Of a stretch of DNA of 64,000 bases, positions 1 through 57,012 are shown piece by piece; the stretch's first letter is position 1, and every line of letters begins with the position of its first letter. The position numbers were made by a program, and so were the translations under genes. Origin of the DNA: Marsupella aquatica (lineage: Eukaryota; Plantae; Marchantiophyta). Where the stretch lies: NCBI GenBank assembly GCA_973895155.1, contig OZ316892.1:820917-884916 (forward strand), read 5' to 3'. A model generated the notes under the pieces. It had not been told where the DNA came from. It was given only the letters and a program-made list of their open reading frames with translations, and searched no databases.

Positions 1-1630
1 CGCCCCAAGCGTCTGCTGCCCATGGCGTCAACTCCATTGGCCTTGGGCCCAAGAGTAGCTCTCACTCAAGCCCTCATAACTCAAAGTCTGTCCGGACCCC
101 TTGAGTCCGGCCCTTTTCCCCCTGACCCGACAAGCTCTCATCTAGTCTAAGTCCCTAGTGTGTGTCACCAGCTTGGCGCCTTGCCTTTGCTAGTGCCACG
201 TCTCATTGCCCACAAGTCTCCCCCTGCTAAGTCATCTTCGGATTGCCTATCCGAGCTTGGACCATAAGGGAGCTTGGCGTCGGAGTCAGCGATGCAGGAG
301 CTAAGTATTAAGGTAGTCGAGTTCTGCGTCTATCACGCACTGGGTTAGGTTAACATTACATCCCAAACGGTGTTTGCTTGGATAGGAGAAACTTAGACTC
401 ATTGCTACGGAGCCAGCAAGGGAGTCAGTTGAAAGATAGGAAGATCTTGTATTGCGGAGACTCAAGTGGTATGACTGATGGGCCTAGAGTTCAATAAAGC
501 AATCTCTTGTGTAACAACCATTACCGCAGATTGGGAGCAATGGTTGGCACAACACCAAGCCAACATTAAAATGATTGGCAATCTCAATCATAAGGTGGCG
601 CATGATCTGCAGGCCGAGGTGGATGACGTCTCCAATGAGGCGGAGGAGTCAACCAGAGATAATAGCACCCTACAGACTCAGGTTACGCTATTGTTGACCC
701 AAAGGGATGGGTCAGGAGATGCCTTTGACAAAGGCAGCTCTAGGGCCCAACCCGACAAGAAGATAAACCCAGGGCTGATAACATAGCAAAATCAGGGGTG
801 GTTGAGGGAAAGAGCAATGAGTCAGCAACAATGTACAACATGATGACAGGGGGCGTCTTTGGGCTAATGTTAGTGACAAAACAATTGCCATTAGGCGTCA
901 ATTAGCGGCACAATAGATAGGATTAGGAAGAGACTCAGTTAGGACCATTGACGTGGGGTAGGATGCTAATCAATGTAGTGCAAGAGGTAGACAGTTAGGT
1001 TCTAGGGATTAGGGTTGCAGGTCAAGTACGCAAGAATATTGACAGTCAATTGCAATAATTATGAGGACAACAACCAGTTAGGTACTTAGGCAAGGATTAC
1101 TTGTTGGAGGTAGTTGGCTCTTTTGTCACTTTGGCAAGTAGTATTCAAGGACTCCCCTGCCCGTGTGGAGGGGGACTTTCTGATTTCTAGATAAGTGGGC
1201 TAAGGCAACGTGATGCACGGGGAGTCCCGGCCTGAGTAGGATTAGAGATCACTTAGGAGTGAGAGCCAGAGTTGAGCTTGCCAGGTGAGAGCTTGACTCT
1301 GGCTCTCGAGTAATTTGTGGGGCTATAATCAAAGGGGAAGGCTAAGTTGATCTTTGTGAGTAATTTGTGTATTGATTATAATTTGCCTCTAACAAAGATG
1401 CCATTTAAGGGATGCACTGGGTGTAGAGTAATGGTTTCGATTGTAAGAAAGTGTATGTTGAATATGTTACGATTTCATATTGTTGGCAATGGCTTGAAAG
1501 CACGCAAGCCAGGAGTTAGTAGGATCACTAATTGTGGATATGCGGTGGATTCAAAATAAACTTGTGATATATACATATGTATAGGGCAGTGTCTTGGAAG
1601 TAGGTTTGTATGTGTAAATCCCCCACTACA
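1..1630. mobile_element. Probable decayed LTR-retrotransposon remnant with a broken coiled-coil ORF
   Basis: Coiled-coil-like ORF at 478-786 flanked by in-frame stops. The segment ends in CCCCCACTACA (1620-1630), an LTR-terminus-like motif, where composition switches to AT-rich. No diagnostic domain seen. Confidence 0.3.
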
Positions 1631-2348: not shown

Positions 2349-3168
2349 ATGGCACGTAACAAACAAAAGGCCAAGAAACCTAAGATGAAGGTGAGCAACA
2401 CGCAGGTGTCTTGGACAGATTGTGAGAAGTTCTCCAGGAGTCAGGTTTATCAGAAGACAGCTCATTATTGTGCCATTTGTGATGATGGTGGGTGCTTGGC
2501 TATCTGTGATGGCCCATGCATGAGGCATTAACCCCAAGTCTCACCTTGCTACAGAGAATAATTGTCCAGGGGTGGGCCTCCCCTCTGCACACCAGGGAGC
2601 CTGGATGTGCATTGGTTGTGTAGAGAAGCAAGCTAAGTGTGCACAGTGCGGGAAGTTGGGATCTTATAAGAGCTCTATTGATTTCAGACCAGTTGTTAGG
2701 AAATGCCCTAACAAATTTTGTGTGAGGTTTTATCGTTTGTCATGTTTGCCTACTCATGCTAAACTTTGCCCACTTCATACATGCAAGGCATGTGGTGAAC
2801 ATGATGATGAGTATTGGACAAACATAGTTCATTGTGTTAGGTGTCCCACAATGTAGCATTATCATTGCTTGAAGGAGCTTCAGACAGAAGGCTATGCTTG
2901 TGACAGAAATCTATGATCACTCTACACATGGTGTTGATTGATGGATCTTTTATTCTCATCGTCATCCGATCGATCCTACTTTGCGCATTCCTATCAGAGA
3001 TCACATATCTTGGCTTTCATGTTGAACAAAGTGGGTCAATGGCATAGTGCCCCTGATGTGGATGTATTGTTTGGAGATTGCAGAGAGTTCATTTTTGATC
3101 AGAAAAACCATCAAGACATTAAACAGAAGTTATCTTGTGCTTACATGTGGTTGGATACATGCCTCTAA
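2349..3168 (+). pseudogene. EDM2/NSD-like tandem PHD-finger pseudogene with introns
   Basis: CAICDDGGCLAICDGPCMRH, then WMCIGC..KCAQCGKLG..KCPNKFCVRFY..SC..CPLHTCKAC..HCVRCPTM*HYHC: the Cys/His pattern of EDM2/NSD-type PHD arrays. Broken by stops and frameshifts. Upstream GT..AG intron at about 2239-2346. Confidence 0.7.
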
Positions 3169-7989: not shown

Positions 7990-10325
7990 GTTCACAGTTC
8001 AAACTAACTACCCTATGGCAGAATAGACTTGAACACCCAGGTAACAATATGTACCATAAAATTATAAAAGACACAATAGGGATACCTCCAAATGTACACC
8101 CTTCTACAAACCAACCTCCATGTCTCGCATGCTCACAGGACAAGTTTGTAACCTGACCAACAATCCCCAAGACCATCTACAAAAGATTAAATGCAGATGT
8201 ATGTGGACCCATTGATCCATCATGTGGACCATTTAGGTTTTTTCTAGCCAGTATAGATTCATCTAATAAATGGTCATAAATATCTCTTCTCTCAACTAGA
8301 AACCTAGCGTTCCCAAGGATATTGGCGAACATTATTAAACTCAGATCCCAATTTCCTAAACACCCGATAAAAACACTATAAGTAGATGGGGCAGAGAAAT
8401 TTACCTCAAAAACTTTTGATGATTTTTGCTCAACCATCGGTATTGACATACAATACTGTATCTCATACGTCCATGCATTCAGACTAAATTGCGGGATCAT
8501 TATTAATACATATAAAACTATCAACATTAGCATGAGGATATATTATACTCATGCGACATCACTTATCCAATACCTGGACCATCAGCATATATTTCATATA
8601 ACCCACACCATCTAGTCTACGGACGCCCACCAAATAAATTGCTCACCTCAAAATGTTTGGATGCCAAGTAATGATACCCAAATGCACCAAGATGGGTCCA
8701 ATCACCAATTAGGTATACATTGGATATGATTCACCCTCCATCATCATATATATAGAACTAAGTACAGGTAATACATTTAAAGCTAAGTTCTAGAACTGTC
8801 ACTTTTATGAATACACTTACCCACAGCTAAGGCATGCCAAGGATCAACAAGATAAATTGAAGCAACAAGACCTAATCTGGCATACAAATAACATATTTCT
8901 AATAGATCCGAGGACCAAACAGACGGATGATGAAGTCCAAAGAATACTTTACCAAGCAATAGGATCTATTGGAAAAACTACCAAATTTATTTAATGATGC
9001 GGCAACTACTACCCGATCGCACAATGAAGCTGCAAACATACTAGCTAGAATTTCATTTACAAATAATATTGCCTCAATTCCACCACTGAGAGCTAAGCGT
9101 GCATGCCCAATTGGTTCGAAAGATACATAGCCTAGACAGCGAAGAACAAACACACCTATAATACCTGAAACCCATACATTATCATCCCCTGCAGAACATA
9201 CAATAACAAATACTGAAAATGAGAAAATGACAATCCAATATATGCATAATGGATAGATCCAATCACGCAACAGAATCAAAATGGATGAACACTTTGCATT
9301 CACTATATACCAAGAAATTACAAATGAGATACCAAAACCATTAACAGTCCTGAAAGCACAATATCTGAGACTTGATTTGATTAAATGGTAGATAACTATC
9401 AATTCATAGTTAGATTCTCTTATCAAGAGAATTTTTTTTTGATCAATTATAAAAGTCCACCATATACACAATTCACAAGGTACAAATTTATATTTGTTAG
9501 GAGAGGAAATGCTTAGGGGGAGGTAGTCCGATATAAAGCCAGGCTGATGGCTAAAGGCTCCACACAAATTCTGGGATACGACTACGACCTAATGTATTCC
9601 CCAATAATGGATACTGTCATTTATAAATTCTTAATTGGATTTTCTATGACAAACAAACAAACTATGTGTTTGATGGATGTGGTGGCAGCCTATCTGTATG
9701 GTACTCTTGATACTGAAATCTATATGAAAGCACCCCCAGAATTGATGAAAAGAATAGCAATTTCACATTCAGGGGGAAAGAAAAAGCATTACAGACCCAG
9801 ATCACTCCGACTAAGAATCAAAAAGGGCTTCATCACCATAGCGAACCTACTATCCAACAAAACCTAAGTGTGCTACACACACCACAGGGCTACAAACGGT
9901 ATGACACTGAAAAAGAAATCAAAAATGATCCACAAAGAATCACTCCTATAGAGGATTCATATGGGCATGAAAAAGGACTAAGTCCCTCAACCAAATCTCA
10001 AAAACATGTGTTACACACACATCAAGCTCATATATTTCTTGATAAAGAGCAAACACTGTCTACTAAGCCACAAAGAAAGACACTGCCTATGCAGTACAAG
10101 TTTTAAGATCTATAAATGGCCTAAAACAGAGTTGACGTATTTGATATAAGCGTTTCAAAAATGAGATACTATCTTTGAATTTTACCAATGACAAAATCGC
10201 CCCATATTTGTTCTTGAAAAATAAAGGCAAGGAATATGTTATTATTGTATTATTGTATTATATATAGACAATATCAATATATAGACGATAGATAAGCTAA
10301 AAGAAGTCTTTGAAATGGATGATCT
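7990..10325 (+). mobile_element. Degenerate Ty1/Copia (Bianca-like) integrase-RT fragment
   Basis: Integrase ADVCGPIDPSCGPFRFF..IDSS and RT AKGSTQILGYDYDLMYSP..MDVVAAYLYGTLDTEIYMKAP..RSINGLKQS. Colinear with the Copia at 31.7-36.6 kb. Many stops; no LTRs recognised. Confidence 0.85.
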
Positions 10326-10959: not shown

Positions 10960-13900
10960 GAACTCAAGCATGCGTTTCCAATCAATTTGAATATCGACAT
11001 GGCATTGCTGGTCACATCTAGCAAGTATGATCACGGACTAAATTCTAAACACAAGTCATAGATTATCAAAGATAATGCTTGTGCAAAGGTAGATCTAGCG
11101 TTACAGTTTCTCAATAATAAGTTCTATCGGAGAGTCCAATCTTGGATATTTGTTGGTTTGTCTATTCAGGAAGCCAGGAATTTAGCTTGGTGTCATAACA
11201 TAGATTCAAAATTTTACCAACAAATGACCACAATCCAGAGGGTGAATTATATTCATATGCGATTTGTTGAAAATGGATCATCTTCAAATCAAGATTTCAA
11301 GAAGGAATGTGCCACAAAAATCAATATATAAGATTGGGGTGTGCTCAAAGACACTGGGGTTTTAAATGCTAATGACAATCTATTTCAATTAGCATTTCAC
11401 TAGGATCCTGTTTGGTCAGTTGTCAAATAGATTTGTGACAAGTGGGAGGTTTGTGAAATTAAGGGGCAGAAAGGAGACAAGGCTAAGAAGAAAGCTTCAA
11501 AGTCTGAAGATGCCAAAATGTCATTTGAGGATATGAAATTGACATAATGGAAACACATGCAAACCTTAAAAGACCCTGTCATGGTTTGCCCTATGTTACA
11601 AAGAGTTCTAACTAAATAACTTTCTCTATAAGAGATAGGGCAAGAATTCCAGTGGCACAAATTCCAAATGCAAGTCCAGAAAGTCTTTCTTACATGTCTC
11701 TACGAGGAGAGTCGGTCAACTTGCAAAATGATATACCCAGAACATTGCACAGATAATGTCCTCAAGAATTTTGTTCCTATTTTCCAAAATTGGGTGAGTT
11801 TACTGAATATTTGTACTCAAATTTTAAATGCTTTGTTCTAAGTTTAATTATTCTTAACCAAGTTTTTAACATAATTTTCTGGCATGTTTGCATAAAGACA
11901 CAACCTCCCAAAAAAGAATGGAGAGAATGATGAAGGCAAGGATCTGAAATCTTTTCCTAACAAATTCAATGCGTATATAGTTCAAACACAAAATTAGCTT
12001 GCAATGAAGATTTCCAGTAGGCAAACCCAAGATGGTGAATTACATCCAAATGCTTTTGAGCATCAAGAATTTGGTGATGTCTATTACGATATTTTCACTC
12101 ACGATGCTCAGCAATTACATTAGGTCGTTCCCTCCAGGGCTTATACATTATGTGGAATGACAAATAAGAGTTATGGGGTAAAAGTGATACAATTTAAAAC
12201 TTTTTGTCACTACTTGAAAATTTTGAAAGCATCTGATCACCCCTTAACCTATTTTGAGCCTCAAAAGAAAATTTTGGAAAGAAGTAAAGAAGTTGGGATT
12301 TCAGACTGAAGAATAGTTTCTTGCTAAATCTAAAATAAATCGTTTTTAGCTAAATCCGGAGAAAATTGCTTATAGTGGGATTTCGGTTTGAGGATTCTAC
12401 ACCAACTTTACCAAATGATTGTGGATCGGCCCCATGTTGGTTGGAGGAGCTTTTGGTCTTGTTGGAAAGTTTTTTGCAAGGGCTACATGAAGAATTTCTT
12501 AAATCATGAAAAGCAAAACTTCAAAATATCCTAAACCGATTCTCCGGGATATCTTGGCATGTGTTGCTTAAATTGTTTTGCATCTCTTTTTCACCTCTTG
12601 AGCCTTTCCATAAGTTAGATAGAGTAAGATATAAAGGGACATAGTTTAGTGTACCTTTAGGAATTAGATTTATAGAGTCTTAGTCTTATCTCACCTTTTA
12701 GGACCTTAAGTTTAGATGAGAACATATTTTTAGGCTTTTAAACCTTTTGGCATCTCAACCTTTTGACGGAGCCTTACAAGTGGACTCTTAAGACCATGAT
12801 TCATTATCTTTTTTTCAACATTGATATTTGACCAAGTGTGGGTCTTTTTCTCATGCCAAATTGGGCTAAGGAGAGAGAATCTAATGAAGAAGGTCATTTG
12901 TACCACTCACATCAATTGAATTTCAAATATTTCATGGATCAAACCTAAGTATTCAAGTTTTGATGTTTGAATTAGTTGTAGAAAATTGTATTGAATGGAT
13001 AACTAAGGTGTGCCTTTGAAATCTAGTTGAAATGAGAATTGTACCAACCTTCATGACGTAAAACCGATCACTACTAAGTGTATAAAGAAGTTAGCGGGAA
13101 GAGAAAACCTTTCAATCTATTGAGAATAAGCCAAACCTAAGGAAGTTCATTTCAACATTTGTGACATAATAATCATTTCAGGATTATATAAGGAGAAACA
13201 GCAAGGAAATCAGATTTCAAACACCACAAAACCTTAGTAAATCGCTTTGTTTAGTCTTTACGGGACCAAATCTTGGTTGTTTTGAGCAAGATCTTACACA
13301 TTTGGTGTTGCTCTACTTATCATACATTAGCATTGGCAGATATTCCTTTTGGGGTTGCCTTGGCTGGATGCAAGCTGCACAAAGATATTGTGGGATGGGG
13401 AGTTCAAGAGATCATTGTGATCACAAAGATCACAATGCGCCAACTGCAAAATTGTGGCGCATTATCACCCATCATAGTATTGACCAATATAATGTTGTCA
13501 AAACAGTTTTGAAGGCGGAGTATAATGGTGGTTTTCAGAATTGTGTTTGGTAAGATAAATGATAAATTGCTAAGTAGATTTTGTATTATATGTTCATGAT
13601 TTCATGAACCCTAGTTTGGAAAAGAAAAATCTAATGCATGCTCTTTGCTGGTTTTCAGGGTCAAGGATAATGTGAAGAATTCTGGAGCCTGAGACTCAAC
13701 AACAACTTTGAGTGTTTTACTATTGGTTTTCACAGTCAAGATGGCAAACGCTCATTGGAGCATTTTAATTTTGACACTAATGAGTCTAGGAATAATGTGG
13801 TTGTTTGCCCAGCAGTTACCAACAAGCTAAAACACAACAGTGATAACAAGGCAGTGAATGTTTACCAGAAGCCCCGGGTATTGCTGAATTAGGAAGTGAC

Positions 13901-14299
13901 TCATTTAGTCAAGTGGTTGATTGGGTGTTGAATATTTGCTCTGGATCTGGGAATGGAATGACATCCTCTTTGGCAACGAGAGCACATTGCATAGCTGTTG
14001 AGATTGATGAACGACAAAGTAGTGTGTTGAAGGGAAGGATTCTCAACCTTGTGGACAACATTGAAGAGGAAGACGATGAGGGACAGATTGATGTTGATCT
14101 GGAGAGAAAAGAGGACCTTGAGCACATTAGAGTAGAGAGTGTAGTAGAAGGTTTAACTCTTATGCCAAGATTGATGGATGGGGCTTCTGGAAGTGGAGAA
14201 GAGGTTGGAGAAGGGTTAGATAGTTTAGTTGCATCTAGAGATTTAGTGGAATTAAATGCAACACCTAGGATTTATAGTATCGTTTTACTTAACATTTGA
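10960..14299 (+). pseudogene. ParB-like domain fused to a beta-class N4C/N6A DNA amino-methyltransferase (N6_N4_Mtase-like); spliced, interrupted pseudogene
   Basis: ParB-like part about 11062-11793: IIKDN--ACAK (decayed GGNH), GLSIQEARNLAWCHN..MT. MTase part: DIFTHDAQQLH*VVPSRAYTL joined across the insertion to ALADIPFG (DPPY-like motif IV, 13339-13353); intron 13550-13658; W.K.N..FECF..NVYQKP (13866-13874)..DWVLNICSGSG (motif I, 13937-13951)..CIAVEIDERQ. Confidence 0.8.
12151..13324 (+). mobile_element. Solo-LTR-like insertion with 5-bp TSD (CATTA) splitting the methyltransferase
   Basis: CATTA at 12146-12150 and 13325-13329. Starts TGTGGAATGAC, the same 11-mer that begins the LTR at 23219; ends ..TCATA (decayed CA). 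Removing it restores the reading frame RAYTL-ALADIPF. Confidence 0.72.
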
Positions 14300-15394
14300 G
14301 TTTGCACAAACTCTGATCAAAGACTATGTATTTGATGTTTGTTATTAAGTGTGAATTTGAGTTTTTATGAATTGTGATAATAAAGTCTCAAATACAAAAG
14401 ATTTTGGATGCAGTCATTAGAATACCATAATTAAAACAAAATAGTTATGTTTAATGACTAAATTGTATAATGATTAGCTAGAATCCAAGAGTTAGGATAA
14501 TTATGATACTCTGAGTAGGGATGATAGCTAAATATTAAGGGTGCTAAGCATTAAGGGCAGGAAAGTGCCGGTGGGTGTGATACCTTGAAATATATAAATG
14601 TTTGATAGATAAAGGGATAATTATGTACCCCTTTGAAATTTGTCATCAGTAATAAAGTGGGCAACAAAATAAAGAATTAAATAACATCATACAAAGTAGG
14701 AAACTATTTTGGATTAGGAGGCGTGTGAAAAGGTCCCCTAGATTGAGAGTCTATCATTTGGTCATATAGTTTGTTCTTTTTTTTAGTTCAATCTCCTTTT
14801 TTATCGGTTGTGTGTAATGTGTGACCCCCTAATAGTGTTGCAAAGAATGATAATAAAGTATAATTAGTCATTAACAAGTCATGATTTATACATTAAAGTA
14901 TTGTCTAAGTACAACTAGGTTAACCGTCAAGAACCTTTAACGGTTTGTACGTTGTGTGGGGTGTACCCAACTTCATGAGATATGGGACAAAAGGGTGGCC
15001 GACAAGAAAATCAGCATTGTCAGGATTGTACCCTCTCCATTCAAGAAAATATCATCACACGAGGGATTGTACCCTCAGTCTCCATTCAAGAGAAGAAGAG
15101 TCATCATTGTTTGGATACAGAAAGTAGTGGAACGAGGGAAGCCATTGCTCCAAGACGTAGGAGGAAGAGGATTCAAGCACCATAAAAGGAAAGGCACTAA
15201 GACCACCGTCCGCTATTCAATTGACTGTGCCATTGTTGAAACTACTTCAATCTATGAGACCAACATGTTTGTCAAGTACATTAGAGTTTTCACAATGCAA
15301 GCCCCCCGTTGAAATCTTTAGGAAGGAAGGATGTTCCGAATGTTTGTAAAGTTGATAAGTTGACTGAACTACCTTCATTTGTAAAGATTTCACA

Positions 15395-18300
15395 ATGACA
15401 TCTCCAAATCAAACCCGAGTAGAGGTCCCTCCAACCAAAAATAAACAACCTCGATCAACTCCAAAAGAAAGATTGAGGAACTCAATCTCTGAGGTGGCTT
15501 TCATTGAAGAATACAAATAGATATTTGAAAGGGCTCAATGCTATGGACTTGTCCAAATTGATAGGTTTGTATCAATTGATCGTGCTTGTCAGCTTCACAA
15601 AGATATTATGGATGTCAATTTTGCAGATACTGCAATGTTTATCACATACAAAGCACAAGCCTACCGCATCCCCAACAAGGAATTAGCCACTTTGTTTGGG
15701 ATTTCCGCCCCAGACAACCTACCAGCTGACTATCCAATTGAGGCACTTATGGGAAGAGAGATGAGTGCCTTCCTAAAGCAAGGAGGAGAGCTCCAGCATG
15801 AGAAGAAGGTCCAATATGCCGTTATAACAAACCAAGAGGTCCGCAAGTATGTAGAGTTCTTTATTAAGTGCGGGACTAAGTGGGTAATCCTCAAGAGTGG
15901 GTACCACTATGTAACGCCAGAGCAACTATCAATTGCCAAGAGAGTATTAGATGGAACTCTTCACCCATTGCTAATATGGAAGCGCAACCTTGCAAGTGCT
16001 ATAACCAGGAAGGGGCTACCATTGTTTCTGTCAGTTTATGCACATGTATTAAGCATAGTGATGGACCACGCCCTTACTACCGACAGGGTCACAACCGGGG
16101 TCACAATAATCTCCTTGCAGGACAGCAATTCAGAGGAGCGAGAGGAGGCAAACCAGGAGGAAGAAGAAAAGGAGGAGTTGGAGAGCGAGGATGGGGAAGA
16201 AGAGAATCCGAGACTCTATGCCCCAAAGGGATCCCTGGTCTTGGGCCTGGTCTAAAGCAATGAAGATGAAGTGGACAATTCTGATGAAGAAGGCGCACAA
16301 GGATTACGCACATTGAGGATAAAGGGGAATGCGTGTGTTAAGTCCTTGAAAAGAAAGAAAAGGAGAGTGATAATCCCGGGTCGAAGAGGAAGAAGAAGCT
16401 ATGACATCTACTGCCCAATCTGACTATGTATACCACCAACCAGTGTTGACAGAGTTGCTATCAAACGTTGTCATGTCTGAGCTCACCTCCTTTGAGTAGA
16501 GGATGAAGTTTATTAATCGACCCTTCCCTGTAGGAACTGACAAACGTTTGTGGTTACAACAAGCCAAGGAAGTGCGCGGGTTGGCCCACATTTGTGCACT
16601 CGAAGCAGAAACTGGGGCAAGAGAGAGAGAAAAGGCAAAGCAGCAAGAAGAAGATTTGTTCAGAAGCGCCAACACCAACCTTAAGCTCCAAGGGAGGATT
16701 GAGAAGTTGGAGACTTTGCTGAAGGAAAACAAGGAGATGGTGAGACTCCTCAATGAGAAGGTGGACTAAGATACGAGAACAAATGTTACATGAGCAGGAG
16801 ATGAAGTCCCAAGAAAAAGAGGCAAGGATTACTTTGCTAATAGAGGAAGTGACAAATGTCCGGAAGGAAGCAGAGAAGCAACACACTCAGATTACCACAA
16901 AGGCAGAAGAATTGAGTCGGTATTGTTCTAGGAGTTGTAGTACACAATGTTTTTGAGATCCTGGAGACAGTCAGTAAAGCTCTGACGGAAAATTTGGAGT
17001 AAGGAGAGTCGGAGTCAGAAGATCAAGAAGAAGCCTAGGAGATAGTACCAATAAGGGCAGAGTTGGGATCCACAACTAATGTTAATGTGGATCCACCAAA
17101 ATACAATGAAGAGGATTTTGAGACTGACGAGGAAGACGAGGAGGGCGAAGCACCTCAAAACTTGGATGCAGAGAGTGAGGGAGGAGTAGAGGCCTTACAA
17201 AACCTGAGTAAGCAGGCCGAGCAATGTCGCAAGAGCCTCAAGAGGAAACAGAGGCAGTAACCTCCCAGAGGAAAATGAAGACGAAGATGAAGAAGAAGGG
17301 AGGAATGCGACCTTCCAACAACCCACACTGTCCAAACTTCCGGATACCACCAATCTGGCAAAGTTGAGGACTTCTGCCCAACAACTGGCGTTCATAGGGA
17401 AGCCAATCCCCAACACCAGGGATCTACATTATTGGTTGAGGGATTTGAAGGAGAGCAAGGCAATGGTGAGGATAGCAGTCTTGGAATCTGAGGGCAAGAT
17501 TTTGGACATGGAGAGGCTGAGGGTAGCAGAAGAGAAGGTTGAGCAACTCCTCGTAAAGGTACATAAGAAGTCCAAATCTAACAAGCTTGCATTGAAACAA
17601 TTGGAGAACTCAGAGGGATTGCTAGACAAAGCAAGGGAGAAAAATGAGGAAACACCCCCAGCCCTGCAGTAGGTCCGGGAGGCGGTCCGAACACAGGCCT
17701 TAAAAGTCAAGTTAGGAAAGGCCTAGAAGGAGAGAAAGAAGCAACAGGAGCTGCTGGCTGACAAGGAGGAAGAATGGAGTCACCTCTTGTCGACCGTCGA
17801 AGAGGAGTTAAACGAGGTAACCACCCAACATGCAAAGTGCAGTTTTGTGTCCCAACAGAAAGCCGATGAGCTGCAAAGGGTAATTGAAGAGTTGGAGCAG
17901 AGAGTAGGGGAAGGAGAACAATTGGCACTCCGGCTGTCCAACTAGCTGATTGCGCATGGGAAAAGAATGGAAGAGCTCGCAGAGAAAGAGGTGTCAGCCA
18001 AACTGGTGGCTTTGGAGTGTGAGGAGAAGCTCCAAGAAGCAAGGAGAGTCAAGCAGGAGCTACAAGGACAATTGGAGGAGAAGCAGACATACGTTGCCGA
18101 GTTAGAAGAAGAAGGAGAAAGAAGAGAGAAGGAGAGGAAGAGATGGCTCCAGGAAGTGGCGAGTAAGGAGCTTGTCCAACAATGCAGTTAGGTGGTCCGG
18201 ATTCCGACGGACACTTACGAGGCCTGGGACCTAGAAGTACAGAGCCTACGGCATGAGGCTGCCACAACAGCTAAGTTATTGAAGGATGCACTGGCAGACT

Positions 18301-20136
18301 CGGTGGGGTATAACCACCGTGACAGCAAACAGCAAATAGCAAATAGTTACTCGTAACAGCAAACGGGTGGTAAAATTTTTGGAATTTTTTTTGGAATTTT
18401 TTTTTGGAATTTTTTTGGGGAAAAAATATTAAATTTTTTTTGTGAGTCGATAATTTTTGGCTAGCGCCCGGAGCTAGTAATAGTATCGCCTTACACTAGC
18501 AAAAAATTGTCATGTTTTAAATTATTTTGAAAATTGTGACTTTTAATGACACATTTTAAGATTGTCTAGTTTGCTCGTAACAGTAAATTTTTGCTCGTAA
18601 CAGGAAATTTTTTGCTCGTAACAATAAATCTGCTTGCTATTTGCTGTCACGGTGAAAACCCTCGACTTGGTGCACAAGAGGAGGCTGGAACAACTCAAGA
18701 AGGTGAGTGTAAACTCATGGAAACTATTCACGGGGCAAAAGATAGCATCTGAAAATGTTATTGAAGTTGATGAAGCTATGGGGTTGGAAACTCTCCGTGT
18801 TATTTTGGCCACAGCAGGGATTAACAAGAGGGCCATTCGTCCGGAGGACTGCGATCGGATTTGGTATGACATCCCGGTCCGGATCAGATTTATGCTTCCA
18901 TTCTTTGAATAGTCGGGAGCCATTGGGTTCACCCAATCCAAAGACTTATATTTTAGATTGGGAGGAAGGGCCAACAACAGAGTCACATAAATCTTGCTAT
19001 CCGAACTGGAGCGAGAGCACCCTGACCACCCCCATTATGTGACCCTCATGGCAAATGTGAATACTGCGCATCCCGACTGTTTGACGTGGAAACTCCATTG
19101 GTTCTATAGTTTAGCAGTACATAGGAAAGTCTTTGATTTAGTAGAAGTAGTAATGAAGTCCTGGGCGGTGAGAGAAATCCATACCAACTGTGGGAAGTAT
19201 ACTCTGCCCCTCCTAGTTATTTTTCTCCAAACGGCCGGATGGCACAACGAAGAGAGAAATGGGACGAGTGTGATTTTTAATCCTTACTACACGTCCCATT
19301 TTATAGTAACCAATGAGTGGATGAGCTTCGTAGACCTTCCCGTCCTACCCCAATTCAGTCATCTTGCCATGACTCATTTTTATTCACTCTAGAGGTAGAG
19401 ATCTAGCTAAAGTGGCTTGTGCAAAGGACACTATCCAAACCGACGAGCTTCCTTTTGATCCAATTGATTTGAGTCTGGGTGTTTGGGAAAAGACATCCTT
19501 TTGGGAAAGGATGACCCCTATGGAGAATGTAATTAGATGATTAGAGGCAAGTGTACATAATTATAGATTAGGAAATTATTTTGGACGTGCAAGACATCAC
19601 ACTAATTCTTCCGAGAGCTTGTAGACAATGACGGGTTTGGTGTACACATCAAGACCAACCCTATAGTTGTATATCATTCAATATGGCAGCATGATCCCTG
19701 GGTAAGGATGCGACTGCCCCAGCACAAGGCCAACCCACCATTAAGTCTTTTGGCTCAACTCCGGCGGTGGATAAATGCCCTTACGAATCGATATCCTTTC
19801 AGGCGTTTGCTTGCAGACCCCCACTACTTCCGGTGGTACTGTTTTGTGCGCTCTTTAATTGAAGTAGTGGATCGATCCGGACGAGCAGGCAAAGTTGACG
19901 TGGATCTTAATGGCGAGATGAAGTGTAAAGGGATGATCATGTGGAAGTTGTTTAGCCGGGCAGGGCCAGTAGCCGCATGGATGTACAATTTTTTAATAAA
20001 CGCCAAGTTCTTGAAGGGAGAGGACCCCATAATTAGATGCGGAGGACCACCAGCGCCAACTCAGGCGTACCTCATGATGGTATACCAACCCAATCCTAAC
20101 ACAGTGGACAATGAAATTGAGCTTGAGGACGAATGA
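15395..20136 (+). pseudogene. Very long decayed ORF (about 1,450 codons): acidic/coiled-coil N-half and unknown globular C-half; likely a retroelement accessory ORF
   Basis: ORFs 18634, 18994 and 19708 share one frame separated by isolated stops. ORF 17967 joins them once the 18315-18654 insertion is removed. ATG 15395 is in frame with ORF 15608. A few frameshifts in the 16-18 kb part. Confidence 0.5.
18315..18654. mobile_element. 340-bp non-autonomous TIR element with CACCG termini (CACTA-like MITE)
   Basis: Perfect 15-bp TIR CACCGTGACAGCAAA / TTTGCTGTCACGGTG and internal CTCGTAACA repeats. Excision with a 3-bp TSD (AAC/AAA) restores the host frame DSVGYN-TLDLVHKRR. Confidence 0.75.
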
Positions 20137-20979
20137 GGTCCTAACACTTACGAAGAATACCACAATTGGTGGATGGTCGTGGGTGAGACGCCGGGGGAAT
20201 GGAAGGAACGACCTTTGAGGCAGCGGAATGAGCTCCGACGACAGTGTTGGACTCGCCGCCGGATTACGGTAGTGGCAGCAAGGGATCCAGAGGTAGCCGC
20301 ATGGGAAGCCGCCCACGAAAGAGAAACAAGGTGACTGCCTATTGTGCCAGATGAGTAAAAGAGCGGCGGATAGGATTAGGTTAGGGAAGCACATCACTTT
20401 GTAGATGGACGGTGGCCATTACCCCATTCTTAGGACAGATTGTAAAGTATTTAAACCCCTAGCCTATCATGGGCAAAGGGGGGGAGAGCATTGCTCAATT
20501 ATATGGTACACATTCTTGCAAGCATAATCGTGTTGGTGTGTAATGTTCTTTTCCCGTTCTGATAAGTCAGTCTTTATTGAATTTGCAGTAGAGAATGTCG
20601 TTGAGGAAGTCAGGTTTTGGATGCTCACAATAGTGACAACATGAGGAGATTTTCCCCTGTATTGTAGTTTATCCAGACCAGTGTCAAGAGCGGTGTCGTA
20701 TTGTACTAGAGACACATATCATCATTTAAGCTCTAAAACTCGGTATTCGTTTCCATGGAAGAACATGTTGGGAATGGTTTACAATCATTTAACACAAATG
20801 AATGACTAAAATAACAAAACACAAAGATAAGCCTTTTACTTTGAATGCTCAGCAAGGCATAGATTTAAAAGTCTGCTTGACATTATAAATATAATTAACA
20901 AAATGGATGAAATTAACAAAATACAAGGAAATTTTGAGGTATGATGAGAGAGTCTAGAAAACACCAAGGTAACTTCTCA

Positions 20980-21370
20980 TTCAGCACGATTGGCAATATC
21001 GATGCCAATCAATGCGCCATTAGAGGGGTGATTACACCCTCACAGTGTTTATAGTGACGTAACGGAATTGGGCAAGCATCAAATGCATTCGGGCAGCGCC
21101 AACCAAAGGCTCCCTTGCCCTGTCCCCGCCGCGAGCCCTTATCCCTTCCGCGTCCTGACCCCGCGCCCTTAACCTTATCCCTGGCCCTGTCCCTCTTGCC
21201 ATTATCCCTCCCGCGCCCTCACCCCATGCCCTAAAACCCTATCCCTGGCCCTATCCCTCTCGCCATAGGGACGCGAGTCCCCTTCCGCACCACACGGCCC
21301 TGGACTCGGTGATCATCGCCCATTTACCTTGGTCACCCGCTATCACAAATTTGACCGGAGTCGTGAGTCG
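20980..21370 (+). repeat. MULE left TIR
   Basis: Reverse complement of 29791-30180 with scattered, mostly transition, differences. Confidence 0.93.
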
Positions 21371-21783
21371 ACCTAGAATGATTGTTGTACTCAATCCAGT
21401 ATCTAGTATACGATGATCCTAACAATGATTAAGACATTCCCGCCGATTCTATTTCCGCTCATTGCAATGCCCTATTGCAGTTCAGTAATGCGCATACCCT
21501 GCCATTTTGCACTTGTACAGCTCTGACAATCAAGCAAGCCGCATCGGAGGAGTGTGTGACTCTAGCAATCCTCTGTATCAAACGTGGTGCATTTCCGTGT
21601 TGTCTTCTGTCAACCTCGTGACCTTACACATTTCTCGCTTGGTATTTTGGAGAGAGGGCTGGGGTTTAGGGCAGTAAACAGACAACAATTCCAAGTTTTG
21701 TGACATTCCCGGTAAGGCATTTCACTTTACATGACGACTCTTTTTGATGTGCACATTGCCGTGATGAAAGAGGAGCCTGTTAT

Positions 21784-22266
21784 ATGGGTCCGTGTAGTGT
21801 TCATGTTGTTAATTTTATAGCAATAAACCCATTCCCAAAGAAATTCATCTATCGAGGGTGTACTGAGGCAACCCCTAGAGGGTTGTGTAAGATTTCAATT
21901 GAAGGTCCCCGAGAGAAGCATTGCAAGCATGACGCTGTCCAGAATGGAACGTTCACCAAATTCTTCCGATTTGAGCTACACCTGACAGACGGTAGCTTGC
22001 ATTGTAATACCGGCAAACCTGGTTTGCGAGCTGCAATTTGGGAAGCGGCCCGAGACTTACTTCGTCTCCCTGCATCTTCTCTAGCTGAAATGGATCCAGT
22101 TGATCAGTTCAAGGTTGTCCACGATTCTATGAAGAATGCGTCGCTTTGCAATGTTACGTTCAGGATCAATCGTGGCATCCTATTTGTCCACAACTTGGAC
22201 ATCATTTCATCAAACACTATATTGCCGCAATCCAGAATATGGTCCCAGACTCAATCGCCTGTGTGA
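21784..22266 (+). CDS. RPA1 C-terminal (Rep_fac-A_C)-like Zn-OB-fold protein carried in the MULE
   Basis: FIYRGC...LCK...HCKH...FFRFELHLTDGS...AAIWEAARDLLRLPASSL follows the Y.aC..C..C..Y.l.l.D.tg..f..a..l.g.sa pattern of RPA70 DBD-C. The true 5' end may be spliced. Confidence 0.6.
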   Translation: MGPCSVHVVNFIAINPFPKKFIYRGCTEATPRGLCKISIEGPREKHCKHDAVQNGTFTKFFRFELHLTDGSLHCNTGKPGLRAAIWEAARDLLRLPASSLAEMDPVDQFKVVHDSMKNASLCNVTFRINRGILFVHNLDIISSNTILPQSRIWSQTQSPV

Positions 22267-22451
22267 CGTACTCCTCGTCGCGCTTCCACACCTTCCACTT
22301 GATTTACACGCCATTCACCTACGCGTGGAAGCGGTGAATCAGCTCCGTTTGAAGGGTGCGTTGGCATTCTTCAATCCGCGTTGAAGGGTGCGTTGGCATT
22401 CTTCAATCCGCGTTGGCATTCTTCAAGCGCGACGAGGAGTACGTCACACAG

Positions 22452-22823
22452 GGAGACAGGTCTTCTCCAGGCTGCTTTCTTCAGCACACATTCCTGGCCT
22501 CTCGTTGCCGCTATGAAACTTCATCCTTAGTATATAATGATGGTGGAGTTCCTTCACTAATAAGCCCGTGTTTCTTATAGACATGGCAACCGTACGTACG
22601 CACATTCAAGAATGCCAACGCACCCTTCAATCCGCGGTGAATCAGCTCACCTAAACTTGGCATTCTTGAATGTGCGTACGTACGGTTGCCATGTCTATAA
22701 GAAACACGGGCTTATTAGTGAAGGAACTCCACCATCATTATATACTAAGGATGAAGTTTCACAGCGGCAACGAGAGGCCAGGAATGTGTGCTGAAGAAAG
22801 CAGCCTGGAGAAGACCTGTCTCC
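22452..22823. repeat. 167-bp near-perfect inverted repeat (hairpin) with 38-nt loop
   Basis: Arms 22452-22618 and 22657-22823; one mismatch seen (CTATGA vs CTGTGA). Confidence 0.95.
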
Positions 22824-29790: not shown

Positions 29791-30180
29791 CGACTCACGA
29801 ATCCGGTCGAATTCATGATAGCGGGTGACCAAGGTAAACGGGCGATGATCGCCGAGTCCAGGGTCGCGTGGTGCGGAAGGGGACTCGCGTCCCTATGGCG
29901 AGAGGGACAGGGCCAGGGATAGGGTTTAGGGCGCGGGATGAGGGCACGGGAGGGATAATGGCGAGAGGGACAGGGCCAGGGATAAGGTTAAGGGCGCGGG
30001 ATTAGGACGCGGGAGGGATAAGGGCTCGCGGCGGGGACAAGGCGACGGAGCCTTTGGTTGGCGCTGCCCGAATGCATTTGATGCCTGCGCGATTCCATTA
30101 CGCCACTGTAAACACTGTGAGGGTGTAATCACCCCTCTAATGGCGCATTGATTGGCATCGATATTGCCAATCACGCTGAA
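29791..30180 (-). repeat. MULE right TIR
   Basis: Inverted copy of 20980-21370, followed by TSD TAACTTCTCA. Confidence 0.93.
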
Positions 30181-31697
30181 TAACTTCTCAACAACACTTA
30201 ATTTGTAATGATTTAAGGTATTGAACTTGTAAGGACATTTATGGAATGAAATGCTTTACTGGGATGGTTATTAGGGTGCCGTCTACATATCTCAACCTTT
30301 CCTTCCAAGATACTCAGTTAGGATTAACAACCAATCACTTCAGTATCCAGTCGGTACTTGGAGTCAGAAATCACAATCACCGTCATCAACAAACTAAATC
30401 ATGGAAAATTGGTCAATGACATTCTTTGCAGGTCGTGCACAAGTAATGTCAAATCCAAAAACCACATGCATCAAGAACTTGAGTATGCATAGCCTTCACC
30501 ATCATGGAATCTATCTCTATACATTCAAAAGATTTTGACATAAAATTATGTTTTATTTCATTGCTCAGAATTCACAACATTCAAAGTCAAGGAAGGGGGA
30601 AGAAATCCTTTGTATGCATTCACTCTTGACAAAAAGCCAGAGTTTCTCTCTACAAAGTGAAGCTTGCCATGCTGCAAATCTACAACACAGGGCTACATAA
30701 TTTCCTCACACCAAAAGTGTCACAAAGTTTGCTCTATATAAGTCAGCAAGAACCCCAAGGAAAAAAAGAAGATACCGAAAGGACATGCCCCTTCAGATCT
30801 CAAAGGTTCTTGACTGAGAATCAAGGGTAACAAAAATATGTTACAAGGGTGCCTAAGATACACTAAAATACTCATGGAATGTGAAACTAACTAAAAATGT
30901 CACTAGTGAAAATTGACACAAAAGTATAGTTTCAGTTTTTACCGAGAAAGTAGAAACAGTGAGTTTGTCCTAATTTTAACTTCTACACCAAAATTCAGAA
31001 TGAAGTGAAACTTTGTCAAGTGATAGATCTACATTCATATTTCATAGTGGCAAAATTTCAGACTTTTTGGAGGTGTTGTCTAGGTGCCTCAAACCATAGT
31101 TTACACTTAACCCTATAATAAGGTTACCTTTAACCTTATATGATGTAACCCAATGGCTACATAATGCCATACCTTAATGGAGAGAAGAACCTTTTATTAT
31201 GATAGAAAACCTTCTCTCACAACACGTTATCAGCACGTGTATGCTCTGGACAAAAATATAGAATAGATGACTCGATGTTTCAACGAGAAAAACATCATTT
31301 TATGGTTCACTTTCTTAATATATAACTGCCCCAACCATTTTTTTTACTCGCCATAGCCCCCAATTACCTTCCAAAATTCAACCCGATCTTGCCCTACTAA
31401 GCAACCCCCAGAGATCTTCTCTCGCCTACTCATAGTAGACAATCCCCTAGATAAGTATCCTTTAATTTTTTTTTCATCCCTGGTTGCACATCGAAGATCC
31501 AATAGAAACCCGAAGCGAATGCCAGGATCAAAAAACATTATGAGGACATGCAACAAGGCCATAATAAGAGCACGCAATAACGATTGAGACACTACAATTA
31601 TAGACGGCATCAAATCAAATCCCGATCTGCAACTGACAATGTGCGAGATATTACAATTATAGAAGACATCAAGTCGACCTCCAATCTATAATCAAAG

Positions 31698-48970: not shown

Positions 48971-50712
48971 AATCTGATATCTCCATCTCCACAGGTCAGG
49001 ATTGAAGCTCATCAGTTTTTTTTATCTTCCTTTCATGGAATAAGTAAGAATATGGTTGTTTCATTTGTAGAAAAAGAAAAGTTTTCAAGAAAGCTACAAA
49101 AAGGAATGGATAGAAAGAGGAAAGGTTTGCAAGAAGATGGTGTCATAAAAGAAAGTGAAGAGATTTTTGGCATCTTAGAAGAGAATGGATGTGAACCATT
49201 GATAGAGGAAGTGCTTCTATCAATATATCAAGGTGAATCAGAGATAGAGATTGGAAGAAGTTTATATGAGGTTCTAGCCTACCTAGTTCAGGAAGAGATT
49301 GAGGTTAACACCAAATATAAAATAGTGGATAAAAAGGTTAGACCAGCAGCTACTCCATTACCTTTAGAAGCTAAAGAGTTGCTACAGAAAGCTAGTAAAG
49401 AACCTTCTTTGAGGAATTGGGATAAGATAGGTTATACATTCACTAAGAAGACATTGGATAGTTTACAAATTGGAGGGGATGGCTTACTCACCAATGTTGA
49501 GGTTGAGGCTTTTCGGAAGATGATATCAAAACATGGGAAGGCCTTTTCCTTCAACATAGATGAAATAGGTTGTGTCAACCCAAGGGAAGTGACACCAATG
49601 ATCATCTTTCCTGTTCCTCATATTCCATGGGATTTGAGGCCATTACCAATACCTCGAGCATTGATGCAAGGAGTGGTAGACTTGCTGAAGGAGAAGTTGA
49701 AAGCAAGAATCTTGGAGAGATCCAATGCACCATATGCAAATCGTTGGTTCACTGTGAGAAAGAAAAATGGGAAGTTGCGATTCATTCAAGATATGCAGCC
49801 GCCAAACAAGGTCACAATCAGAAATGTTGGCACCGGACCAGTGGTTGATGAATTTGCAGAGAAGTTTGCTGGTAAGGCAATTTACTCAATTGGGGATCTG
49901 TATTCTGGGTATGATCAATTCCAACTTGCTGAAAGTAGCAGGGATATTACCACCATGCACTACTACATATTGGCCCCTTTTGTGAAGCTTTTTTTTGACG
50001 TCGGGATGGTCTTGCGATGTCATTGACTTCAGATATTTTGTGATCAAACACGCATCACAATAAACCATGCTCACAGGTTCGCAACATGGTGTTGCGAAGC
50101 TAAATACCTCGCAATTTGTTTGAGATCGGATTGAATTCGCAACTCTTTCAGATACTATTCGTCTCGCAAAGTATTTGTGGATCCGCGACCATCGCGACTG
50201 CATTTGGATCTCTTTTGTTTCATAATTTAGTGATAATAATGTACTCAAATATATATTGTGAACCTATTAGCTTCACACAATATTGTGAAGCATAAATAGT
50301 CGCAAGTTACCGAATCCAGTTGATTCGCAAAGTTGAGAACACATTGGCATCACAATTACCGATGGTGTGTTATTCACAAAGTGTTCAGAAGTTGCTTCTT
50401 GACAAGCTTGAAAATGTTTTGCAAAGAGAGTTGTTTGAAAATTTTGTAGAATGGAAATGTTTGAGAGAGTTTCTTTACAAGATGGAGAATGCATGTGTTT
50501 AGGTTACAGCTAGGGTTTTCAAAAAGGTGGCATGCATGAGGATAGCTTTGGAAACGGCTAAGGTTTCATATATAACAGTGAGATGAAATTTCAAAGTCCA
50601 ATTAAGTGTTTGTAAAACAAAAGAAGAAAAGTAATATGTTAATATAAATAAAACCATGATAGTTAGTTTAGGGTCAAATTCTGGGCCCACAACAAGTTTT
50701 ACTACTAGTGCA

Positions 50713-53700
50713 TCAAACCTGGTCCTCATCCTCGCCTCCATTTGACACAATAATAACGTCAGGTTTTTCCGAGATAATGGAACGGGACCGTGGCACATAC
50801 GGTATAACAACTGACCACTCTAGGTCTGGTGGGTACGGAATATAGAAACACTGCTCAAGGTGACTTGGGAATGTAAATGGTTCAGATGTTTGCCAATGAG
50901 ATGGTTGAAAGCTAGTTGCTGATGTCTTCAGTCGAGTAAACCCACACTCATCAAGAAGTACCGTGCGATTATCACCAACCAGGTGAATTTTGAACCACTT
51001 ACACTTGAAGACATACTCTTCAAATTTGGAATCGGCATCATAGGATATGATCAAGATCTTCTCAATCTTCCCATAGTGAGGCACCACATCTCTGATCACA
51101 TTAGTGTCATGACGGCTACTTTGTGAATCTTGCATGAACTGCCCTTGAACTCCACAATCAAAAGTTCTTCCCCTCTTCTCATCAAGGTCAGAAATCCTGA
51201 AATGCCTCCCTTGTGTCCACATTGTTGTTCTGGTTTGAACAAGTCTTAAAGGACCATGAACAATTGTTCGAACCTCAGGAGTCATATCTGGAAAATGTGA
51301 TACATTCTCACCTTGGGCCACCATAGCATCCAACTGAAGTACTTTCTCCTTCATATACTCAAGGAACATTGGAAAGATCCTTGGGCGACGACTCTCCCTC
51401 TTTGCATCCTCATAAAACTCTCTCCAATCTTCCATCATATTGCTGTTACTCAACATGAAAGTACTAACCTGTGTCAACTCCACTGCGGTTAGTAAGCGTG
51501 TTTTTTTTGCACCTGTTAAACGGTCCTCCTCCACTTCCCTCTCTTCCATCCAAGTGCGTGGAAAACTAGGATCAATGGTAGCTAAGATGTTACTACAATA
51601 AAACATACTCTCAGCTGCCAAGTATCCAGTTGCCATGCTCCCCTCCACTCGTGCACGGTTCCGTACATAAGCCTTTAACACGGCCATATACCTTTCCAGC
51701 CAATACATCCACCTACAATGCACCGGACCGGCAATGGCAACCTCCCTCACAAGATGAACGAGAAGATGCACCTGACAATCAAAGAAGGAAGGAGGGAGGG
51801 CCTTCTCCAACTTGCATACCACCTCTGCTGCCAATACCTCCATCCGTGGTATCTCTTCTTCATATATTTCCTTTGAGCATATCCATCTCAACAAAGTGCC
51901 CAGTGACCAAAGGGCGTCTTGCACTTCTTCACTCCCCAAACCTATGATTGCCACAAGAAGTATATGTTGTAGTAAACGATGATAGTCATGTGTCTTGAGA
52001 TACATTGGCCATTTATGACTGTCCTCCATCCCAAAAGCGTTATGTAGATTGGCACCATAGCCTGTAGGAAACCGCATCTGCCCTATGCGTTGTCGAAACT
52101 CTCTTCTTTCACCAACACTCAAAACCCATGGAGCTGAAGGACGATGTTCCATCCCTGTGGATTCATCAACTGTTATCCATACATCTGGATGTCGTTCTAG
52201 ATCCTGGCATGCCTCCCTAAAATTAATGTTTTTTTCCCCATAAAAGTGCTTGATCAAAGCCTTCCCAACATTTCCCTCTATATGCATGGGGTCTAACAAG
52301 TGATGAATCTTCAACTCAGGCCAATAGGGCAAAGTGGCCAGTATACCCCACCTTGTCAATCCACTACCATCAAATCCCATGGCATCTTCAGGGTCTGCCA
52401 CCCTATCAGCTATGGACTTCCAATACAAAAATGTTGTGCGGTCAGGTATCTCACGCTCATCACCATTGATCATGTCAAAGTCTGAAAACAAAAGGGGGTC
52501 AGACCTCATGTGATGCCCAAGTGGAAGAAACTTGGTATGACCAAGGTAGATTATCTTGTGCAGCCATTTTGAGTACTTGGCCATATCGTGAAGGCTTGGA
52601 CCACAAGTGGAGCATGCCTTGTACCCTTGAGTTTGGAACCCAGAAACAAACCCAAACCCTGCTCACAAAATAACATTCTCAATTAGAGTCAAAGGAATTG
52701 AAAAGTTCATGTACATAGAATTAAAGAGGGACTTCCTTCCAAACAAACTTGATCTCCAATACATGAAAAAATACAAATCCATACCACTCACCTGGATAGT
52801 CATGCATGGTCCACATAATGATTCCCTTCAATTGGAAGACACGTGGTAACCCTCCTGTAGTTGTCCGACCATCATATGCCCATACACCCCCCATAATTTA
52901 TGGAGTTCCCCAACCAAGAGCGCCAAGTAGGTGTCCATGTTTTTTACCTTAGATGGACCTGGGATAATCAATGATAGCAATAAGAATCCCTTTTTCATGG
53001 ACAACCATGGGGGAAGGTTGTAATTCATAACAACCACCGGCCAAACCGAAGTAGGGCGCCCTTTCCCTCCAAGGGAGTGTGGGCTTACCCCATCTGATGC
53101 CAACCCCAACCTCACATGACGAGGGTCACGTGCAAATTCTGGCCATTGTGACTCCACATGCTTGTGAGCAGGGGAATCAACTGGCAATCGCATGACACCG
53201 GCCTCTGATCGATGTGTCTTATGCCATACCATCAATTCTGCCAAGTCAGAACATCGGTACATGTGCAACAATCGAGGAATAATAGGAAACCAACGAACAG
53301 CTTTTCTAGGCACCTTTGAGGTCAACATGTTGGTTTCATATCGAGACTCTTGACAAATTGGACACTCAGTTGCGCTGGCATTGGTCTCATGATAGAGAAT
53401 GCAGTCATTCACACAAGCATGAATGATATGGTATTCTATGCCAATGGATGATAGAACCCTCTTTGCCTCCTTCCAAGTTCCTGGCAACACATTTTCACTA
53501 GGTAACAAGAGATCATGGCAAATTGCAAACAAATCCGATAGTAGCGCATTGCTTGCCTTGTGTTTTGCCTGAAGATTCATCAATGCCAAGATGGCAGATA
53601 GTCTATTCAAACGAGCACCCCCATAAATAGGTGTTCTAGCATGTGCCTCAGCTTCTTCCCATTGTTTTTGTCCTTCAGGTGTACGTTGAGGCCTTGGATC

Positions 53701-55291: not shown

Positions 55292-55724
55292 CTGACAAGT
55301 ATAGCAATTGGAAGGCGATTAGTAAAAACTTCACCAAAACCATCATTGATAATCCCTACCTAAACATATTAAAAAGAATTGACAGAAAAATACCTTTATG
55401 AGACCCGGGCTTAGCAATGCCTTGACGGATCTTGTGGCTCAAATTTCATGAACCAAATCTGGAAGGAGGGGAAAATCTGCCAATATACAATGAATTAAGC
55501 CATGCCTTATGGTGAACCAGAAAAAAAAGATGATAGATTGTAACCCTCCATATTTACAGCAATGACTAGAAATGCATGAGAAAATGTTATACCTTTCAGA
55601 TGCCCGGGCTCTCGCAAGGCATTATCATGCATTAGCCAAAACTTTAAAAAACATGGGGAAGTGCCCTACAACGCCAAAGAGTTTTCCTCTCCATGTTAAT
55701 GAGATAGACAAAGAAATATAAGTA

Positions 55725-56520
55725 ACCCAAACCCTACCCTAAACCCAAACCATGAAATGAAACCCTTCATTAAAACCTAACCCAAATCCCTCAATCACCC
55801 TAAACCCTTACCCTTATCCTAACCAATACCCAAATCCCTCATTAAAAATTCAAACCTTTACCCTAAACCCAAACCCCTACCCTAAACCCAAACCATGAAA
55901 TGAAACCCTTCATTAAAACCTAACCCAAATCCCTCAAGCACCCTAAACCCTTACCCTTATCCTAACCAATACCCAAATCCCTCATTAAAATTTCAAACCT
56001 TTACCCTAAACCCAACCCAAATCCCCCAATTACATATAAAACTCTTACCCTATCTACACCTTACTTTACCTATATAGGCCAACCCCCACCCCTATAGTTA
56101 TTCTAAACTTCACCCTAACCCCTAAATTGAGGCCCTTTTTTAAAACTTAAGCAAAAATTGTACCCCCTCAATTAGAACCAAATCCAACCCTATATCATGT
56201 TACACCCCAACCCAAACACTTACATTAGAAACCCAACCCCTTTAAAAAAACCACAATTAAACCCCCCAACTAAAAACCAAACCCAATCCCTTTAAAAAAC
56301 AACCACAATTCAACCCCTCAACTAAAACCAAACCCAACCCCTGTAATTACTCACAACCTAATGCAAACCTCTACCTTGAACCCTAAGCCAAACCCATTAA
56401 TTTAAACCCAACCCTTTTATTCCAACCTAACCCAAGTTTTAACCCCCTTAATTAAACCAAATACTCCTAGATTAAAACCAAATATAAACCTAACCTTTAA
56501 TTAAACCCAAACCTTTGTTA
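55725..56520. repeat. AAACCC(T)-rich telomere/telobox-like tract with a 143-bp tandem duplication
   Basis: Many AAACCCT/AAACCCA units. CATGAAATGA recurs at 55751 and 55894. Lies between the divergent CACTA genes. Confidence 0.8.
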
Positions 56521-57012
56521 ACTTATATTCTAGTTATCCTTACAACCCAAACATCCATTGACACCCCTTCCATGTTAACTTATGGGCACTTAACATACCT
56601 TAAATGTCGTTTGACAAACCTTAATAGCCGTTTGACACCCCAAAGTGTTTTCCAACCCTAAACCGATAAGACCTGCCTCGCAAATTATTTCACAAGTTAG
56701 AGAATATTTTTGTGAACCTATGACCTTCGCACTTGCTTCGCAAAAACAGAGGCCAAGAACAATTTTTTGGGTCTTCTGCGGGTTGCGATGGCTTTGCGAA
56801 GGGAATAGATTCGGAAGTGCCTCGCAAGTTGCGAGACTATTTGCGAGGGTGCGGGCTTCGCAGTTTCCCATGCGTATGTCATCGCAAACCCGTTTTTGAA
56901 CGGCGTAAACATCGGCGGGAGCTCGCATTCGGGCTCATTTCAGTTTTTGAGCGAGACGAGAAGGGCCGGGGCGCGCGCAACAGTACGAGGGAGACTGTGA
57001 GAGAGGGGAGCT

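Follow-up and report, generated by a model that had tools for sequence, protein, structure and literature searches.

A decayed, spliced ParB-like and methylase fusion gene in the liverwort Marsupella aquatica belongs to a plant gene family that is probably transposon-borne

Positions 10972-14299 of a 64,000-nucleotide stretch of Marsupella aquatica DNA (contig OZ316892.1, positions 820,917 to 884,916 of the forward strand; hereafter the window) are the relic of a spliced gene that joins a ParB-like part to a methylase and has lost its 5′ part. The window copy is a dead member of a plant gene family in which the same two parts are combined. On balance, we favour the view that a DNA transposon carries the intact gene as an accessory, with a predicted product that binds the TCATG-N4-CATGA palindromes of that element and writes N6-methyladenine (6mA) nearby.

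The relic and its intact relatives

The three plus-strand frames across 10960-14299 contain only scattered coding fragments. When the front part is read through its lesions, it retrieves nine relatives (E ≤ 0.01, 48-63% identity), one of which is from Calypogeia fissa, and alignment of these relatives led to two metagenome loci, L001 and L002 (two of 125 pattern matches). L001 contains three GT-AG introns of 117, 89 and 99 bp and after splicing reads for 896 codons without a stop, the reading frame continuing past the end of the contig, and spliced L002 spans 879 codons with one stop. Introns 2 and 3 interrupt the same codons in the window copy as in L001 and L002. The gene is a single four-exon unit with both domains. 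A profile search finds 347 representatives of the family at E ≤ 0.001; ParB and methylase parts lie in one protein in 22 of the 150 representatives listed, and in 21 of the 34 that reach at least 380 residues. A reading made earlier from the sequence alone had proposed a spliced fusion of a ParB-like part with a beta-class amino-methylase, and the splicing of L001 and L002, together with the two folds described below, bears this out as one gene and not two separate ones. Its claim that the copy is dead and has intact relatives also stands, given the stops and frameshifts of the window copy versus the stop-free L001.

Between L001 and L002, dN is 0.13 in the ParB part and likewise in the methylase domain; in both domains, pN is 0.12 and pS is 0.72-0.79, with synonymous sites near saturation. 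These values indicate that the two loci are under purifying selection. Exon 1 (L001 636-1034, L002 1686-2102) encodes a conserved 125-residue N-terminal domain that has no match in Pfam or NCBIfam and is also found in the proteins P0020 and P0050. L002 further contains a 234-residue open reading frame (2-703, minus strand) that lies head-to-head with the methylase gene, encloses two palindromes and is without a match in Pfam and NCBIfam.

In a frameshift-aware alignment over 10972-14026, the window copy and L001 are identical at 309 of 552 residues (56%). The window copy has decayed through nine stops, four frameshifts, the loss of the intron-2 acceptor and a 1.17-kb insertion; a further TAG at 13890 coincides with a frameshift, so the stop tally is nine to ten. 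The exon 2 remnant (10972-11793, plus strand, as are all exons and introns here) starts where tblastn with intact relatives begins and encodes the second half of a ParB/Srx-type N-terminal domain and a helical, HTH-like region, with stops at 11059, 11329, 11401, 11428, 11545, 11617 and 11629. Intron 2 (11794-11893, 100 bp) has a GTGAG donor and a mutated acceptor, CAT at 11891-11893 versus CAG or TAG in L001 and L002, and it occupies the position of GT-AG introns of 89 bp (L001) and 101 bp (L002). The first part of exon 3 (11894-12150) encodes the linker and the start of the methylase domain and suffers a frameshift near 11900 and stops at 11995 and 12121. Its second part (13325-13549) contains catalytic motif IV as DIPF (13339-13350), followed by a frameshift near 13438. 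Intron 3 (13550-13658, 109 bp, GT..AG, phase 2) sits where L001 and L002 each have an intron of 99 bp. Exon 4 (13659-14299) carries W-x-K-x-N, QKP (13866), the SAM-binding motif I DWVLNICSGSG (13919-13951), AVEID (13994) and an acidic tail, with frameshifts near 13690 and at 13890-13905. The GTGAG donor, intron 3 and the motifs from DIPF to AVEID all lie where the sequence-only reading had put them.

The two parts of exon 3 are separated by a repeat insertion (12151-13324, 1174 bp) that starts with TG and has a CATTA duplication on both sides (12146-12150 and 13325-13329). Contigs with an empty site, skipping about 1179 bases (12143-13321), are found in all four sequencing runs, and many related contigs also cover the insert, which is likely a solo LTR. 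The insertion had been called from the letters and is real, but cutting out exactly 12151-13324, as had been suggested, leaves CATTA in duplicate and disrupts the frame, so that one of the two CATTA copies has to be removed as well.

Nothing in the 64-kb window matches exon 1 or the beginning of exon 2. The place of the 5′ end of the gene is occupied by retrotransposon debris that includes Copia, of which a reverse-transcriptase fragment lies outside the gene at 9517-9864 (plus strand, PF07727 E = 2.6e-16). The stretch 10972-11075, previously read as a decayed IIGGNH segment, is homologous but weakly so: shuffle p is at most 0.005 for five of six references and 0.034 for the sixth, for a stretch that had been chosen by BLAST extension before the shuffle test.

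Folds of the two parts and the catalytic motif

The front part of the gene product has a ParB-type fold, as seen in the predicted model of this part from one relative (P0006, pLDDT 88.8). All 12 Foldseek matches of the model at E ≤ 0.001 are ParB or Noc. Its N-terminal domain aligns with Caulobacter ParB (7bm8) over 95 residues (VIA Z 9.6, rmsd 2.3), and the model aligns with KorB over 195 residues (VIA Z 8.1, rmsd 4.9). Alignments to KorB, ParB and Noc that include the DNA-binding domain cover 180-195 residues (Z 7.3-8.1, rmsd 4.9-5.8), with the DNA-binding domain alone giving Z 4.4. The ParB-like part of the intact relatives has no sequence match in Pfam, PHROGs or NCBIfam. In ParB, the box-II arginine (GxxR) serves CTP binding; the corresponding site in the family is GGxH-S/T/G, with Ser in 49 of 79 cases and the arginine mostly replaced.

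The back part has the fold of a beta-class DNA amino-methylase, judging from a full-length model (P0094, pLDDT 79.7) of a distant member that has DFPY at motif IV and lies outside the subfamily of the window copy. The best matches of this model are CcrM (2.8e-11), M.BceJIV and M1.HpyAVI (TM(target) 0.75), and the structure of bdelloid N4CMT is also matched, at rank 25. In a profile search of the PDB, adenine enzymes score 9e-13 to 2e-12 versus 8e-4 for N4CMT. The ParB/Noc and CcrM-like matches support a prokaryote-type fold, in line with the prokaryote-derived family that had been proposed. The anticipated N6_N4_Mtase match is obtained via intact relatives, in which PF01555 exceeds its cut-off of 26.7 bits (41.0 in exon 4 of L001, 33.0 in P0002 and 65.7 in P0062), but not in the window's own open reading frames (0 of 14), which also lack a ParB match in Pfam. 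It is also obtained in an Atlas feature search, where 28 of 30 hits carry the PF01555 set.

Motif IV precedes motif I in the window copy, as it does in L001 and L002. Among the relatives that cover exon 3, motif IV is DIPY in 17 of 18, and the DIPF of the window is one base away from it; it is motif IV and, measured against the family, not atypical. NIPY lines the active site of Erm, and DIPY is described in the accessible text of PMC12294265 as motif IV of HindIII-type N6-adenine beta-class methylases, which makes 6mA the likelier predicted product of intact copies rather than N4-methylcytosine (4mC). In contrast, the 4mC writers DN4MT1 and N4CMT use (T)SPPY according to the accessible text of PMC8885841 and bioRxiv 2021.02.12.428880, and motif IV begins with Ser in none of the 18 close and 19 distant family members scored. 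The reading as a DN4MT1 relative, and with it as a 4mC writer, was rejected on this motif. The suggestion that intact paralogues write 4mC or 6mA survives as a prediction for 6mA; its 4mC half, like the framing of the gene beside DN4MT1 and N4CMT, is unsupported by the motif. Those two enzymes are likewise eukaryotic beta-class amino-methylases of prokaryotic type, but, as far as they are described, N4CMT has a chromodomain and DN4MT1 has TSPPY without an extra domain, whereas the family combines DIPY with a ParB fold.

With CcrM, M1.HpyAVI, M.RsrI, M.MboIIA and HindIII-type enzymes, the family shares the fold, the order of motif IV before motif I, QKP, the acidic residue after motif I and DIPY. 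It differs from these beta-class N6-adenine methylases in sequence (about 17-20% identity), in its fusion to a ParB part, in being spliced and in having no restriction partner.

The usual motif I of such enzymes is DPFxGSG. The family has DLCxGSG instead, which, together with the Ser at the place of the ParB arginine, suggests a possible change in CTP hydrolysis or in methyl transfer. Motif IV is also eroded in nine of the 19 distant members scored (DFPC in four, and DIPH, DVPN, DTPT, DTRG and DMPQ, with DVPN, DMPQ and DTPT in animal or amoebozoan members), the other ten keeping D-x-P-Y or the near form DALY (DAPY in three, DFPY in three, and DLPY, DVPY, DPPY and DALY), and one paralogous contig of the host reads VPF among the matches listed. 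These features could mean that the gene is a transposon accessory gene whose methylase domain is a non-catalytic module for binding DNA or a base, the protein sitting on the palindromes as a clamp or scaffold. We consider this rather unlikely, because active enzymes of the HindIII type have the same DIPY as the close relatives, the family retains QKP, GSG and the acidic strand behind motif I, and the methylase domain matches the ParB part in its low dN.

A gapped palindrome in and around the gene

Intron 3 of the window copy contains the palindrome TCATG-ATTT-CATGA (13594-13607), a candidate parS-like site and the sole exact match to TCATG-N4-CATGA in the 64 kb (shuffle mean 0.4). The form TCATG-N4-CATG(A/G) occurs three times in L001 and five times in L002 (shuffle mean 0.0), located upstream of the gene and within intron 3. 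In a scan of all gapped palindromes, TCATG-N4-CATGA is the sole one that recurs in both L001 and L002 (0 of 200 shuffles). It is also the sole palindrome common to introns 3 of the window copy, L001 and L002, the three loci on which its conservation rests, and none of 2000 shuffled trios share any palindrome. The central bases are CTAG in L001 and ATAT/ATTT in L002, the same within a locus, and the intronic and one upstream palindrome of L001 are identical across 18 bases. A diverged paralogue of the host has 21 differences in intron 3, none of them at 13588-13612, among the matches listed. A second palindrome, GTGTGTATACAC, is common to L001 (389) and L002 (1544), where it lies about 150-250 bases before exon 1 and is a candidate promoter element.

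In the mechanism we favour, the intact gene would ride as accessory cargo on a DNA transposon. The ParB part would read the TCATG-N4-CATGA of its element as ParB reads parS, and the fused methylase would put N6-methyladenine near the palindromes, adenine being the predicted target. Such self-marking may help the element to be expressed or to move, or it may shield the element from host 5mC silencing. A stronger version, which we hold only tentatively, is that old and active streptophyte transposons load a ParB clamp at parS-like palindromes and spread a fused methylase that lays 6mA, in which case the central bases of the palindrome would co-evolve with each subfamily.

Hosts, carrier and known systems

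The family spans Chara, liverworts, a fern, Ginkgo and some animals, and the named hosts among 30 proteins examined are Calypogeia, Riccia, Adiantum, Ginkgo, Chara, Clastostelium, Holothuria and Ptychodera. In a midpoint-rooted FastTree tree of 47 sequences, the window copy clusters with Calypogeia and metagenome proteins (support of the wider clade 0.94), a placement that points to a bryophyte and probably a liverwort as the host, and the tree roughly tracks streptophyte groups. Grouping by plant lineage, strong purifying selection and conserved introns would also fit a domesticated host gene family that lays a developmental DNA mark, with the window copy as its pseudogene, and Marchantia DN4MT1, described in the accessible literature as a 4mC writer in liverwort sperm, offers a precedent. 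We think a host gene improbable, as the genomes of Calypogeia, Riccia, Chara and Adiantum each contain numerous divergent copies that are often fragmentary, related contigs reach a high depth, the neighbourhood of the gene in the window consists of repeats alone and DN4MT1 itself has TSPPY and lacks additional domains.

Related contigs at 80-95% identity are abundant in all four sequencing runs that contain the window. In run X3, one such contig of 1004 bp has a depth of 574 versus 12-15 for exact pieces, where contig depth does not equal copy number and the runs may include other organisms. At least six lesions of the window copy are read through in related contigs, and loose ends give sense codons or an intact frame at 11076, 11401, 11617, 12131, 13698, 13873 and 13906. 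The depth of the related contigs fits many young copies.

An origin from an endogenous virus or a virus-like element, or contamination with prokaryotic DNA, would explain the phage methylase matches (phrog_67 to the methylase domain of P0062, E = 1.5e-27) but is very unlikely in view of the three spliceosomal introns, named relatives that are all eukaryotes and the lack of any relative in four pattern scans of viral contigs and two of prokaryote genomes, scans that are insensitive. Phage methylases match the back domain alone, at about 25% identity, from which we take the prokaryotic origin to be old.

Nested retrotransposons and CACTA sequence make up the window. Here, as in L001 and L002 (contigs of 3.6 and 4.8 kb), the gene is tied to no transposase, terminal repeat or target duplication. 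By analogy with precedents in the literature, and given the many related contigs, the family gene is probably transposon-borne. One precedent is Sola1-1_Ec32 of Ectocarpus, which carries an accessory gene for a 1104-residue protein with a ParB-like part and an N4/N6 methylase, a protein for which binding and modification of its own element have been proposed (PMC12477816, accessible text). The Ectocarpus gene has the same two domains, is eukaryotic and similarly large (1104 residues versus about 900 or more here), and faces another gene in the opposite orientation, as L002 faces its head-to-head reading frame. However, its carrier is a defined element of 21.5 kb that includes a transposase, whereas the family described here is likened to it by architecture; the accessible text of PMC12477816 mentions neither land plants nor DIPY nor an intronic palindrome for that gene. 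A second precedent is Plavaka, in which the Bostrychia accessory gene PAG2 combines PF01555 with SET and PAG3 combines ParB with a 2OG oxygenase, and red-algal ParB accessory genes lie beside palindromic or tandem inverted-repeat arrays (bioRxiv 2025.02.11.637652, accessible text). The likeness lies in a ParB-like reader beside inverted repeats and in a PF01555 methylase as transposon cargo, but as described there the ParB part and the methylase belong to different proteins, whereas they are fused in the present family.

Two further groups are prokaryote-type adenine methylases in eukaryotes that have a ParB part or reside on mobile DNA. Chlorophyte-type Dam with a ParB HTH is assigned to Iyer group 2, clade 2, in PMC4738411, the accessible part of which lists no such land-plant clade; it is of another methylase class and, as described, has the HTH of ParB only. 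Retrotransposon DAMs are also of another class, and the accessible text of bioRxiv 2026.05.21.726589 does not mention ParB. The present family shows no group-2 (M.EcoKI/M.TaqI-like) methylase domain, its best structural and profile matches being group-1/beta enzymes. In the openly accessible texts covered by the literature search, no paper treats this family in land plants. The sequence-only reading had presented the gene as a rare and hidden novelty; with 347 representatives and an architecture already reported in algal transposons, this is not supported.

The family adds land plants to the range of a scarcely described class of transposon accessory genes known from algae. If the stronger version of the mechanism holds, land plants, which are thought to have lost DNA 6mA, would have genuine, local, transposon-encoded 6mA that counters 5mC silencing. 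The family supplies a candidate writer with an intact motif known to be active, along with a candidate site for its binding and loci to examine, so that the 6mA question can be put to a direct test in Ginkgo, ferns and liverworts.

Other elements of the window were also noted. A CACTA/EnSpm element (49958-59831) with CACTAC ends and an ATG target duplication is nested in a Gypsy element, and its cargo comprises a transposase (50716-53979, minus strand) and a SET-domain open reading frame (54133-54945, minus strand; PF00856 E = 6e-4, below cut-off). A link between the methylase gene and this element was rejected, as the latter inserted separately, spans 9.9 kb between ends of its own and contains no methylase. 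At 2350-3020 lies a decayed PHD_NSD-finger gene (PF22908 E = 4.5e-5), and a 44-bp stretch upstream of it (1800-1843) is repeated at 91% identity directly after the methylase gene (14399-14442); this repeat is possibly part of the carrier element of the methylase gene. A near-perfect hairpin at 22258-22823 has 167-nt arms (99%), a 38-nt loop and smaller internal repeats. Long open reading frames at 15521-16255, 18991-20136 and 21748-22266, without a match in Pfam or NCBIfam, fall in a GC-richer repeat block, and 20979-21370 is repeated in inverted orientation at 29791-30181.
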